A stretch of DNA of 64,000 bases. Source: Myxococcota bacterium (lineage in GTDB: Bacteria; Myxococcota_A; UBA9160; SZUA-336). Position numbers and translations under genes: made by a program. Positions 15,435 through 49,960 of the stretch are shown here, piece by piece. Below the pieces are notes generated by a model. That model was given only the letters and a program-made list of their open reading frames with translations, did not search any database and was not told the DNA's origin. Every line of letters starts with the position of its first letter. The stretch's first letter is position 1. The stretch lies in NCBI GenBank assembly GCA_046754285.1, contig JBHHVJ010000005.1:26330-90329 (forward strand), read 5' to 3'.

Positions 15435-15998
15435 CTAACTCTCCGCCCGCTCCGCGGGCTTCTCGGTCGCGGACGGCTCGGCCTCTGGCTCGCTCGGGCC
15501 CGGCTCTTTCTCCCCGCCCGTCTCCGGCTCCAGAGCGGCCTCCGCCGCTGCCGCCGCCTCCGTCTGGCTCCGCTCGGCCGCGGCCTTTGCGTTCGCCGCC
15601 GCCTCCTGCTGGGCGCGCTCCTCCTCCTGACGCTCGCGCTCCTCGCGGCGGCGTTGCTGCTCCGCCTCCTGCTCGCGGGCCTCGGCGATGCGCGCCTCGA
15701 CGTCCCGTACGCGCTCGTTCGCCAGCACCGTGAGGAATCGGAGCACGTCCACGTCCAGCCGCATCAGGCGCTCGAGCTCCGGGATCAGGGCGCCGTCGGA
15801 CAGAAAACCGAGCTGAAAGTAGTGGCCCTTCTGGAACTTGCGAATCTCGTAGGCGAGCTTTCGCTTGCCCCAGTCATCACGGATCAGGTAGGTGCCGCCA
15901 CCCCGTGCGAGCACATCGTCGACGCGGGCGTGGATCTCCTTCTCGCGCTCGGGCGTGGCATCCGGCTGGATGACGTAAATGAACTCGTACTCGCGCAT
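15435..15998 (-). CDS. rpsF: 30S ribosomal protein S6 with long Glu/Ala-rich C-terminal tail
   Basis: ATG at 15998 preceded by GGAGGGA. MREYEFIYVIQPDATPE...GKRKLAYEI is the S6 core. About 85 extra E/A/Q-rich residues follow. Confidence 0.88.
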   Translation of the reverse strand: MREYEFIYVIQPDATPEREKEIHARVDDVLARGGGTYLIRDDWGKRKLAYEIRKFQKGHYFQLGFLSDGALIPELERLMRLDVDVLRFLTVLANERVRDVEARIAEAREQEAEQQRRREERERQEEERAQQEAAANAKAAAERSQTEAAAAAEAALEPETGGEKEPGPSEPEAEPSATEKPAERAES

Positions 15999-16146
15999 GG
16001 ACGTCCCTCCTGGTCGTGAGGGCCCCCGCCGTGGCGAGGACCGAGGCACGCGGATGAGGAGCGAAGTCTACCAGCTCTCCCGCCCGCCCGCGAGGCCGAC
16101 GGGCGCGCAGGCGAGCCCAGCGCGCCGATACTGCGCCCGGACGGCA

Positions 16147-16183
16147 GGGATCTGACTCGAGACGGTGTCTCGGGTCAGATCCC
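16147..16183 (-). terminator. 17-bp stem / 3-nt loop hairpin downstream of hppA (terminator-like, no U-tract)
   Basis: GGGATCTGACTCGAGAC-GGT-GTCTCGGGTCAGATCCC. There are 17 pairs with one non-Watson-Crick position. It is separated from the palindromic element only by the dinucleotide TA. Confidence 0.45.
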
Positions 16184-16185
16184 TA

Positions 16186-16347
16186 GTGTTCCGTCCCGGA
16201 AGTCCCGTTGCCTTTCTCGGTGCCGAGACGCGCAGCGGACAAGGCGCACGAGCGAGGAATATCCGTAGATATTCCGAGGGAGTGCAACACAGTCCGCGGG
16301 GATGGATCGGCGGCGAGCAAGGTGACCGGACTTCCGAGACGGGACAC
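16186..16347. mobile_element. 162-bp rod-like palindromic element with 20-bp terminal inverted repeats and flanking TA (candidate MITE; alternatively a structured ncRNA)
   Basis: GTGTTCCGTCCCGGAAGTCC (16186-16205) matches the reverse complement of GGACTTCCGAGACGGGACAC (16328-16347) at 18/20 positions. TA is present on both sides (16184-5, 16348-9). Imperfect arm symmetry continues inward for about 22 more nt. A central perfect hairpin GGAATATC-CGTA-GATATTCC lies at 16256-16275. The element is locally lower in GC and has no credible ORF. Confidence 0.45.
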
Positions 16348-18389
16348 TAGATGATGAGAGGCGCGATGACGACGGAGACGACGGCCATCAGCTTGATCAG
16401 GATGTTGAGCGAGGGCCCGGCGGTGTCCTTGAAAGGGTCCCCGACCGTATCGCCCACGACGGCGGCCTTGTGCGCATCCGAGCCCTTGCCGCCGTGCGCA
16501 CCGCTCTCGATCGTCTTCTTGCCGTTGTCCCAGGCCCCCCCGGCGTTGGCCATGAACAGGGCGAGCAGCACGCCCGAGACCGTCACCCCCGCCAGCAGAC
16601 CCCCGAGCGCCTCCTTGCCCACGATGAACCCCGTCAGGGCCGGGATCAGAACCGCCATCAGACCCGGCGCCATCATGCGCTTGATGGCCGCGGCCGTGGA
16701 GATGTCGACGCAGCGCGCGTAGTCCGCCTTGGCTGTGCCCTCCATGAGCCCGTCGATCTCACGGAATTGGCGGCGCACCTCCTCGATCATCTCACCGGCG
16801 GCGTCGCCTACGGCCTTCATGGCCATGGAGCTGAACAGGAAGGGAACCATGGCCCCCACGAAGACCCCGGCCATCACGATCGGGGAAAGCAGGCTGAGTT
16901 GCTCGAGCTGGGCCTGGGTGCGGAAGGCACTGAAGAGGGCGAGGGCCGTGAGCGCAGCGGAGCCGATCGCGAAGCCCTTTCCGATCGCCGCGGTCGTGTT
17001 GCCGACGGCGTCGAGCTTGTCGGTGCGTTCGCGAACTTCGGGAGGCAGATTGCTCATCTCCGAGATCCCGCCCGCGTTGTCCGCGATGGGCCCGTAAGCG
17101 TCGACGGCGAGCTGGACCCCGACGGTGCAGAGCATCCCGAGACCGCCGAGCGCGATGCCGTAGAGACCCGCAAGCTGGGAGGCGCCCACGAGAGCCGCCG
17201 CGATGATCAGGATCGGGAGCGCGGTGGACTGCATCCCGATGCCGAGCCCGGCGATGATGTTCGTCGCCTCACCGGTCGTGGAGGCGTTCGCGATGTCGTT
17301 CACGGGCTTGCGACCCGTGGCCGTGTAATGCTCCGTGGCCATGGCGATGAGCACTCCGCCGACGAGCCCGAGCACCATCGCACCGAGCAGGTTGAGCCGC
17401 CCCTCGGGAACGACGGCCCCGATCGCCACGTAGGCGACCGGAACCATGATGATGACCGAGCCGAAGATTCCCATGTTGAGGGCGAGCTGGGGGTTGCCGT
17501 CCTCACGGGTTCGGACCAGAAACGTCGAGACGATGGAGACGACGATCCCGAGGCCCGCGAGCACCAGCGGCAGCACGACGTAGTCGAGCTGGCGATCGGG
17601 GGAGACGCCGAGCGAGACGGCATAGGGGATGCCGAGAATCATCGCGCCGATGATCGCACCCACGTAGGACTCGAAGAGATCCGCTCCCATGCCCGCCACG
17701 TCGCCGACGTTGTCGCCCACGCAATCGGCGATCGCAGCGGGGTTGCGCGGATCGTCCTCGGGCAGCCCGGCCTCGACTTTGCCCACGAGGTCCGCCCCGA
17801 CATCCGCCGCCTTGGTGTAGATCCCGCCGCCCACGCGAGCGAAGAGCGCGATCGAGCTCGCCCCGAGGCTGAAGCCGGACAGCACCGTGAGGACATCCTG
17901 ACGAACCTCGGTGACGGAGGCTCCGAAGATCTTCGTGTAGAGCAGGAAGAGGACGGAAAGACCGAGCACGCCGAGGCCCACGACACACATCCCCATGACC
18001 GTGCCGCCGGCGAAGGCCACATCGAGCGCTTTGATCAGGGAGTGCCGTGCGGCGGCGCTGGTCCGCACGTTCGCGAGCGTGGCGACGCGCATTCCAAAGT
18101 AGCCGGCCAGGCCCGAGCACGCCGCGCCGACCGCAAAGGAGAGGGCGATCAGCGAGGTGCCCTGCTGGTAGTACCCGCCGGCCAGCAGGATTGCGACGGC
18201 CGCCACGAAGACGACCAGCACGCGATACTCACGGCGCAGGAAGGCCATCGCGCCCTCCTGGATGTAGCCAGCGATCTCCGCCATGCGCTCCGTACCCACC
18301 TCGGAGCGCTCAACGACGCGCGCGCGCCAGTAGGCAAAGAGGAGCGCCAGAACTCCCGAGCCTGCAACCGCCACGATGACCTGATTCAC
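16347..18389 (-). CDS. hppA: membrane-bound proton/sodium-translocating pyrophosphatase
   Basis: Multi-TM protein with [28 protein letters not shown] and [10 protein letters not shown] signatures. The GTG start at 18389 overlaps the pth stop (GTGA). Confidence 0.92.
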
Positions 18390-18985
18390 GCCTTCCCCTC
18401 CTCTTCTTGTGCGTCGACGAGTGAGATGCCGTTGTAGCGGTTCATCGCCTCCTCGACCCCCTCCTCCAGAATCGTCTCGATCGCGCACACGGCCAGATCC
18501 ACCGTCTCGAGAAAAATCCTCCGCTCCTCCTCGCGGATGCGGCTGAGCAGATGGGCCGTGGGATCGCGCGCGTCGCGCGGCCGTCCCACCCCCACGCGTA
18601 CGCGCGGGAAGTCACGCATTCCGAGCTGGTCGATCACGGACTGGAGCCCGTGGTGCCCGCCCGATCCCCCGCCCGGTCGAACGCGGATCCGTCCGCGCGG
18701 CAGGTCCATGTCGTCGAAGACCAGCAGCAGGTCCTCCGCTCCCAGAGGGAGGTACCGGACCGCCTCAGCCACGGAGAGCCCCGAGAGGTTCATGTAGGTC
18801 TCGGGCTTCAAGAGTGCGACCTCCTCACGACCGACCCGGCCCCGACGGAACCGGCCCTGGAACTTCTTGGTCTCGTTGCGGATGTGATGGCGCTCGGCGA
18901 AGCGGTCGCAGACCAGGAAGCCCGCATTGTGCGGCGTGTCCCGGTAGCGGGTCCCGGGATTGCCCAGGCCGACGATCAGCCGCAT
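18386..18985 (-). CDS. pth: peptidyl-tRNA hydrolase
   Basis: [23 protein letters not shown]...GGHHGLQS. Confidence 0.92.
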
Positions 18986-49793: not shown

Positions 49794-49960
49794 CGTCGGG
49801 ACGCCTTCGGGACGCGGTCAGTGCGAACGGCTGGCTTCCATCAGAGGGGCGTCTCAAGATCGGAAACGAGGAGCGGAAAGGCAAGCCGCGGGGTCCGGAA
49901 GCGTGCTAGTGTTCCGGATCAGTCCCCCGCCCTCCTCCGTGGTCCCGCAAGGAGAACGTC

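Follow-up and report, generated by a model that had tools for sequence, protein, structure and literature searches.

A probable IS630-type MITE at the hppA stop codon of a Myxococcota bacterium and the conserved centre of its family

The hppA locus and the inserted element

We analysed a 64,000-nt stretch of DNA (the window) from the genome assembly of a Myxococcota bacterium (3.47 Mb in 124 contigs, 68.4% GC). On its minus strand lies an intact hppA gene for an H+-translocating pyrophosphatase (positions 16347–18488; Pfam H_PPase, E = 9.6e-274, profile positions 1–645 of 645), and the next gene downstream is rpsF for ribosomal protein S6 (15435–15998, minus strand; Pfam Ribosomal_S6, E = 6.3e-25). 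Between the two genes sits an element of 162 bp (16186–16347), recognisable by seven identical loci, a rod-like fold and compensatory base pairs, and described here on its plus strand, which folds better and carries the G.A and G.U pairs. Directly adjoining the CTAG at its left border is an 18-bp hairpin (16146–16184) with arms that are 94% complementary.

Together with its bounding tetramers the element spans 168 nt (16183–16350), reading CTAG-TGTTCCGTCCCGGAAGTCC...GGACTTCCGAGACGGGACA-CTAG. A duplicated TA stands on either side, the left copy (16184–16185) within the CTAG at 16183–16186 and the right copy (16348–16349) within the CTAG at 16347–16350, which also contains the TAG stop codon of hppA (16349–16347). 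The terminal inverted repeats, GTGTTCCGTCCCGGAAGTCC on the left (16186–16205, plus strand) and GGACTTCCGAGACGGGACAC on the right (16328–16347, plus strand), pair at 18 of 20 positions, the remaining two being a T.G wobble and a C.A mismatch, and in a repeat search the arms reached 44 nt with a complementarity of 82% (16183–16226 with 16307–16350). At the centre is a perfect 8-bp hairpin (GGAATATC-CGTA-GATATTCC, 16256–16275, plus strand), which covaries across the family described below. Both strands of the 168 nt fold into a rod: the plus strand forms a single one of −105.5 kcal/mol (z = −11.9) and the minus strand one of −90.6 kcal/mol (z = −8.6), with 0 of 200 shuffles folding as well in either case. 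The GC content of the element is 63.6%, compared to 67% in its flanks and 68.5% in the window, and its only ORFs are frames of 48–61 codons that run through it. The first-pass annotation of this DNA had reported the 20-bp repeats with one wobble, some 22 nt of further arm symmetry, the central hairpin, the TA on both sides, the lower GC content and the lack of a credible ORF, and all of these observations held up.

The same annotation had proposed that the element inserted cleanly behind the hppA stop codon, ahead of the hairpin. In related genomes from other genera, hppA is followed by rpsF and lacks the element but keeps the CTAG: the gene ends ...PLII* with ATC-TAG in two of them (G019 and G021) and ...PLIV* with GTC-TAG in a third (G006). 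Their flanks downstream of hppA are unalignable and the genera are different ones, so that this identifies an orthologous CTAG, not a precise empty site; a scan of metagenomes for the joined hppA flanks found none. The kept CTAG is in keeping with the proposal, under which the 18-bp hairpin would have stood after the hppA stop before the insertion. The long 3' hairpin that the element now adds may affect the hppA mRNA. As a separate observation, the hairpin at 16146–16184 belongs to a small family of ~65-nt repeats, with 5–6 related copies elsewhere in the genome.

A second reading offered at first pass was a resident, 6S-like RNA gene. More broadly, the element could be a structured non-coding RNA kept by the host, rod-shaped and 6S-like or acting as a 3'-UTR stabiliser or terminator, with the repeats being gene copies. 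Searching Rfam 15 with cmscan, we found no match for the window region at E ≤ 10, and Rfam likewise gave none for the loci of six relatives at E ≤ 0.1; the best score on the element (MIR898, 21.7 bits against a cut-off of 75) was taken as chance. Scans for sigma-70 promoters and intrinsic terminators in and around the element returned no site. These results, along with the orthologous hppA site that lacks the element, argue against a host RNA, and the resident 6S-like gene is unsupported.

Copies, target sites and stop codons

As expected for a mobile element, the sequence is multi-copy. Seven copies in the genome are 100% identical over exactly 168 bp, an identity that is possibly slightly flattering because a short-read assembler may collapse differences between repeats. 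All seven are bounded by CTAG, and hence flanked by TA, and their surroundings are unrelated from the first base beyond it. An eighth, degenerate copy of 149 bp lies 563 bp from one of the seven, and none of 72,556 plasmids searched with blastn matched the element. For all seven copies, the TAG of a long ORF falls within one of the flanking CTAGs. Five of the abutting ORFs have a Pfam family (H_PPase, DsbA-like, Abhydrolase_11, AcrB and, as the fifth, GNAT), and for the first four the match stops no more than one position short of where the profile ends, indicating that the abutting genes are not truncated.

Related elements are widespread. Using BLAST, we identified full-length 168-bp relatives with 66–76% identity in other genera of the same family, and a covariance model built from 15 members had tens of matches per genome in four relatives (G012, G011, G004 and G021). 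From relatives, GTDB species genomes and metagenomes, we compiled a set of 78 non-redundant full-length members, 61 of which abut the stop of a coding-like ORF in the correct frame, compared to 0–3 in shifted-frame controls. The stop lies at the left end in 22 of these, at the right end in 32 and at both ends in 7, where convergent genes have one common CTAG. Orientation relative to the gene is unbiased in the full set (22 versus 32, p = 0.22); an orientation bias among the first 51 copies (24 versus 10) was gone with 78.

To read the stop-codon share, the distribution of the tetramer itself has to be considered. CTAG is 11-fold depleted in the genome (891 sites versus ~10,100 expected), and the 875 sites not belonging to the element comprise 334 stops of coding-like ORFs, 273 sites inside ORFs and 268 others. 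Stop codons thus account for 38% of the CTAG sites in total, and for 55% if only sites outside coding-like ORFs are counted. The share observed in the family (78%) exceeds this background (p = 2e-5), the 'other' class of which includes unclassified genes. We attribute the position on stop codons largely to the CTAG target and to the loss of insertions within genes; active targeting of stop codons was rejected as a superfluous assumption given the stop share among CTAG sites. A literature search on IS630 MITEs at CTAG or at stop codons gave nothing specific.

The ends of the 78 members also reveal the size of the target duplication. Of the 78 members, 70 have CTAG on the left and 67 have it on the right, and the exceptions differ between the two sides: deviant left ends read xTAG (GTAG, TTAG) and deviant right ends CTAy (CTAA, CTAT, CTAC). 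Such a pattern results from duplication of TA in an xTAy target by an element with fixed termini G...C. Duplication of 4 bp would make both end tetramers identical, and the end variants therefore speak against it.

An IS630-family partner

The first-pass annotation had seen no transposase in the window, and we found no DDE_3 transposase there. The only DDE_3 (PF13358) matches of the genome are located at the heads of two other contigs (C41 and C52) with an exact 55-bp overlap. When joined, these contigs yield an element of 1132 bp, bounded by CTAG and coding for a 348-aa protein with HTH_23/29/32 and DDE_3 domains. The ends of this IS630-family element (CTAGTGTATCGTCTGTGAAGTCG and CTAGTGTACCGTCTCGAAAGTGA) match those of the 162-bp element (CTAGTGTTCCGTCCCGGAAGTCC and CTAGTGTCCCGTCTCGGAAGTCC) at 17–19 of 23 positions, with 17–18 of 23 for the left repeat plus CTAG and 19 of 23 for the right repeat plus CTAG, which resembles the right end of the longer element. 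Searching the whole genome for the 23-mer with up to five mismatches, we found only ~7 other sites, two of which are exactly the ends of the 1132-bp element. Beyond the ~22 terminal bases there is no homology between the two interiors, nor is there any complementarity to the transposase mRNA beyond the ends.

Matching termini occur on DDE_3 elements in three independent genomes. In G011, a relative rich in these short elements, DDE_3 contigs bear the ends CTAGTGTTCTG... and CTAGGAGCC...: a 1171-bp DDE_3 contig starts with CTAGTGTTCTGAG..., and after a second DDE_3 fragment comes the end CTAGGAGCC..., corresponding to the second type of terminal repeat in the short-element family. The 348-aa transposase shares 52% identity, across 97% of its length, with RefSeq genes annotated as 'IS630 family transposase' on Streptomyces plasmids. 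On one of these (NZ_CP109325.1, a plasmid of Streptomyces sp. NBC_01592), the IS630 element has the ends CTAGTGTCCTGCGCCGGAGAT... and ...ATCTCCGGCGCAGGACACTAG, near the family consensus CTAGTGTCCTGTCCCGGGAGTT, and is placed on the TAG of a GNAT gene; the left terminal repeat of the hppA copy resembles its end CTAGTGTCCTGCGCCGGAGAT. A DDE_3 gene is absent from six of seven relatives rich in the short elements and from a Planctomycetota metagenome-assembled genome (MAG) that carries a sister family, probably due to loss of repeats during assembly. As the 1132-bp element is split over two contigs and its repeats are similar but not identical to those of the short element, the exact mobiliser may be a different one.

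These termini bear on the possibility of an IS5-family (DDE_Tnp_1) MITE with a 4-bp duplication of the complete CTAG, as opposed to an IS630-type element that duplicates TA. TNA duplications are typical of IS5, IS1031 and Harbinger elements, and the Planctomycetota sister family duplicates a 3-bp TNA within CTNAG; the Myxococcota genome itself has 8 DDE_Tnp_1 genes, and nearly all copies have CTAG at both ends. MITEPsy1 of Pseudomonas syringae, which also inserts at CTAG, is attributed to IS5 and duplicates 4 bp, either CTAG or YTAA (PMC3189936). The element described here differs from MITEPsy1 in its 2-bp TA duplication, as indicated by the unequal left and right end variants, and in its IS630-family ends. 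Furthermore, the contigs with the 8 DDE_Tnp_1 genes lack any terminal-repeat-like site, and in all three genomes it is DDE_3 elements that have the matching termini, making an IS5 origin very improbable.

Several known elements are comparable. IS630 of Shigella sonnei targets the TA in 5'-CTAG-3', and both it and the element on NZ_CP109325.1 resemble the present one in this target and in nearly the same outermost bases (CTAGTGTCCTG...), but they are autonomous, ~1.1 kb long and transposase-encoding, whereas the short element has no gene. The ERIC/YPAL repeats of enterobacteria and the Correia elements are rod-like intergenic palindromes, 127–170 bp long, with insertion at TA and transcription together with neighbouring genes in either orientation. 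ERIC has a conserved central part and, to our knowledge, no established transposase partner, and the Correia elements of Neisseria contain an IHF site and promoter elements. These palindromes differ in sequence and host, and the likeness is one of mechanism and shape only. By mechanism, the closest analogue is RUP with IS630-Spn1 in Streptococcus pneumoniae, where an IS630-family insertion sequence of the genome has terminal repeats like those of RUP and movement in trans was proposed (PMC3049150). RUP is likewise short and non-coding, with IS630-like repeats and hairpins predicted in transcripts, but it is AT-rich, 107 bp long and found in a Firmicute, whereas the present element is GC-rich, 162 bp long and a full rod; the passages that describe RUP note no preference for stop codons or CTAG (PMC3049150). 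Here, moreover, the centre is better conserved than the ends, and the comparison with RUP is again by mechanism and shape, not by sequence.

Taken together, the element is very probably a gene-less MITE of the IS630/Tc1-mariner kind, moved by IS630-type transposases with a CTAG/TA target, as the first-pass annotation had suggested from the repeats and the TA flanks. Judging from the matching ends, transposases with HTH and DDE_3 domains would recognise the ~22-bp terminal inverted repeats in trans and insert the MITE by cut-and-paste into the TA of the rare palindrome CTAG, duplicating the TA. Because the duplicated TA lies within CTAG, CTAG is rebuilt at both junctions. Many CTAGs in this 68% GC genome are a C followed by a TAG stop, and such a stop is regenerated on insertion, so that surviving copies accumulate on stops in either orientation. 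At the present locus, the insertion would have separated the hppA stop codon from the hairpin behind it.

A conserved, strand-specific core

The fold of the MITE is maintained in evolution. Across the family, 90.6% of cells are paired, compared to 79.5% in shuffles and ~35% when the partners are slid, and compensatory changes are found in 33 of 55 pairs versus 15.1 in shuffles; 0 of 500 shuffles equalled the observed value in either test.

Conservation is concentrated at the centre. Invariant columns cluster mid-element and not in the terminal repeats, with GGCGC.CGA.CGA on the 5' side and AG..CAAC on the 3' side. The core consists of GGCGCRCGAGCGAGG, the covarying hairpin and then GAGSGAGYGCAAC, and includes two tandem G.A pairs; from the outside inwards, its helix runs through GCRC/GYGC, a G.A and an A.G pair, covarying G-C and C-G pairs, a second G.A and A.G, and the apical stem. 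In the hppA copy, the 5' block is CAAGGCGCACGAGCGAGG (16240–16257, plus strand) and the 3' block, which forms a helix with it, is CGAGGGAGTGCAACAC (16275–16290, plus strand). Based on a subset of members that was not ascertained by the core, conservation within the family is highest in the 5' block (1.65 bits per site), followed by the 3' block (1.55), the terminal repeats (1.41) and the arms (1.23).

This structure favours one strand. The complementary strand of the core has C.U in place of the G.A pairs, and of 70 unique members, 69 have the better fold on the plus strand (mean of −116 versus −98 kcal/mol). In pairs predicted on both strands, G.U cells are more frequent than A.C cells (62 versus 23).

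Strand-specific folding and a conserved hairpin core are also what would be expected of a REP- or REPIN-like palindrome handled as single-stranded DNA by an HUH enzyme (Y1, RAYT or IS200/IS605-type), and the genome encodes two Y1_Tnp proteins. REP and IS200/IS605 elements, however, are not known to have long terminal inverted repeats or a TA duplication, both of which are present here, and the ends of the element match those of IS630. No copy lies next to the Y1_Tnp genes, around which REP or REPIN palindromes would cluster, or elsewhere on their contigs (C118 and C11), which lack any terminal-repeat-like site, and neighbouring copies on one Planctomycetota contig face both ways. Handling by an HUH enzyme is accordingly an extremely improbable explanation.

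An exact-pattern scan showed that the core is also present in elements with quite different ends. One core-bearing element with CTAGGAGATTGACCCAAGACTG ends was found in a genome of the same class, and another, again with different ends, in Latescibacterota. In the 9.1-Mb Planctomycetota MAG, 475 terminal-repeat matches correspond to ~240 core-bearing elements of 166 bp, the sister family with the TNA duplication. The motif CGGAAGT is common to all end types and lies at an equal distance from the end; the Latescibacterota genome contains 37 DDE_3 genes, and the motif was absent at the eight loci checked. The core is not universal, given that a subfamily in G011 has replaced the CGAGCGAG motif and yet proliferated. 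Searches for the core on its own elsewhere in the genome gave only one chance half-match each, and no paper in our literature search matched the sequence of the core or of the terminal repeats.

Mutations in individual copies provide a further view of the core. We counted private (single-copy) substitutions, which mostly arose after insertion, in 52 Planctomycetota and 27 G012 copies and found 30 in the 68 core sites versus 167 in the 244 remaining sites, which makes them 35% rarer in the core (one-sided p = 0.013). Decay of the terminal repeats is about as fast as that of the arms.

Some of these observations would suit a non-coding RNA kept by the host: the better-folding plus strand, the preference for G.U over A.C in strand-neutral pairs, conserved internal loops and tandem G.A pairs between covarying helices, and private mutations that are ~35% rarer in the core. 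On the other hand, every copy is bounded exactly by CTAG/TA and the termini match IS630 ends, mutations do accumulate in the core of individual copies, and the G011 subfamily proliferates without the CGAGCGAG motif. Because members lie in both orientations (22 versus 32), read-through transcription would yield the well-folding strand in less than half of the copies. The weak protection per copy, the lack of orientation bias and the lack of promoter-like sites make a host RNA function of each copy unlikely, and we regard an RNA gene family as a quite improbable account of the element. In a weaker form of the idea, the element may carry a strand-specific folded module.

Plain MITE biology does not account for the strand asymmetry or for the conservation of the core. 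From a decay that is only ~35% slower, the conservation across elements with different ends and the folding of one strand, we infer a cis-acting structural module, one that matters mainly for propagation of the element, as the terminal repeats do, and not for a host function of each copy. A filter acting on propagation best explains why conservation between lineages is so strong. It may act as DNA, single-stranded DNA or RNA. A bolder version, which we consider possible but rather doubtful, is that the central ~50–100 nt form an undescribed strand-specific structured module (GCAAGGCGCRCGAGCGAGG, the covarying hairpin and GAGSGAGYGCAACRC, including fixed internal loops and the two tandem G.A pairs) that is carried by IS630-type MITEs of several phyla while their ends and duplication size (TA or TNA) are exchanged, and that acts in cis on the element's own spread or as RNA. 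Acting in cis, it could for instance serve as a hinge or fold-back by which so short a transposon brings its two ends together, or it could be recognised as a folded single strand by a protein of the host or the transposon.

Apart from its conserved centre, the element is ordinary selfish DNA, a new family of a well-known kind. For annotation, it accounts for the 164-bp insert after hppA, for several short spurious ORFs and for some contig breaks in the MAG, and it shows that, in GC-rich bacteria of soil and sediment, the usual nature of 'hairpins on stop codons' is that of IS630-type MITEs and not of purpose-built terminators. It also illustrates how a target preference, here TA in CTAG, renders a transposon nearly harmless by restoring the stop codon that it hits, even where two convergent ones overlap. 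The one thing that would surprise specialists is that the strand-specific core outlives changes of the ends. Should the core turn out to be a module for mobility in cis or for an RNA function, bacterial MITEs would gain a new functional part, and, if the bolder version is true, a conserved 'core domain' comparable to the core domains of eukaryotic SINEs.

Copies and transposases in the window's genome

A 1132-bp IS630-family element, whose ends match the MITE termini, lies outside the window and is split over two contigs of the same genome (C41:1-913, minus strand, and C52:1-274). Both contigs begin within this element, and they overlap by exactly 55 bp. The assembly breaks inside the element, which suggests that the genome holds at least two copies or variants of it. 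The genome also encodes two Y1_Tnp genes of IS200/IS605 or RAYT-like type (C118:1102-1455 and C11:10210-10533) and eight DDE_Tnp_1 transposase genes on eight short contigs (C96-C120 and C58). Most of these genes are located on very short contigs, and further repeat families therefore also fragment the assembly.

One member of the MITE family is degenerate: a 149-bp copy at C15:26361-26509 (L004:2231-2379), situated 563 bp from an intact copy. Part of its 5' core is missing, and it is thus an older insertion. Within the window, a solo CTAGTGTTCCGG at 49906-49917 corresponds to 12 nt of the MITE end; an ssb-like gene follows approximately 55 nt downstream. This match has no partner end and probably arose by chance.

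Related elements in other genomes

The same core as that of the MITE occurs in a 166-bp rod element present in ~240 copies in the Planctomycetota MAG JACPWG01 (G061; for example, L220-L299). These elements end in GTACCGCYCCACGGAAGTCGG and duplicate TNA within CTNAG. Whichever of the four bases stands at N, the TNA word spells a stop codon on one of the two strands. A 263-bp element of this genome (L230) has the same ends and a quite different interior. No DDE_3 gene was found in JACPWG01, the host of these TNA-duplicating elements.

A subfamily in another genome, G011 (copies L327-L339), retains GCAAGGCG...CCAACGC and the apical ATCCGTTGAT hairpin, with an ordinary helix in place of the CGAGCGAG/tandem G.A segment. 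Even with this altered core, there were still 77 model matches in G011. Another core-carrying contig, CAYGWM010000031.1 (L072, L042 and L050), is titled 'uncultured Spirochaetales' at NCBI. What is apparently the same genome, given agreement in contig number and coordinates, is placed in the class of the window's genome, so the Spirochaetales label is probably wrong.

On a Streptomyces plasmid, an annotated IS630-family element (L340; NZ_CP109325.1:178819-180341) lies at the TAG codon that terminates a GNAT gene. The transposase's own reading frame closes on the TAG contained in the CTAG at the element's far end, and the target therefore completes the transposase stop codon.

A hairpin repeat adjoining the MITE

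The hairpin next to the MITE (window 16118-16186) belongs to a ~65-nt repeat with six to seven copies in total, the others being elsewhere in the window's genome at C1:34455-34483, C2:118559-118580, C7:11388-11408, C50:1273-1292, C55:9849-9870 and C57:12042-12066. The repeat, GCCGATACCGCGCC.GGACGGCAGGAGTCTGACCCGAGACGGAGTCTCGGGTCAGACTCCTAG, has an 18-bp stem and a conserved apex, GAGACGGWGTCTC, and is absent from Rfam. CTAG or CTAA is frequent at its end. It may represent a second small repeat family, mobile or terminator-like, and a source of CTAG targets.
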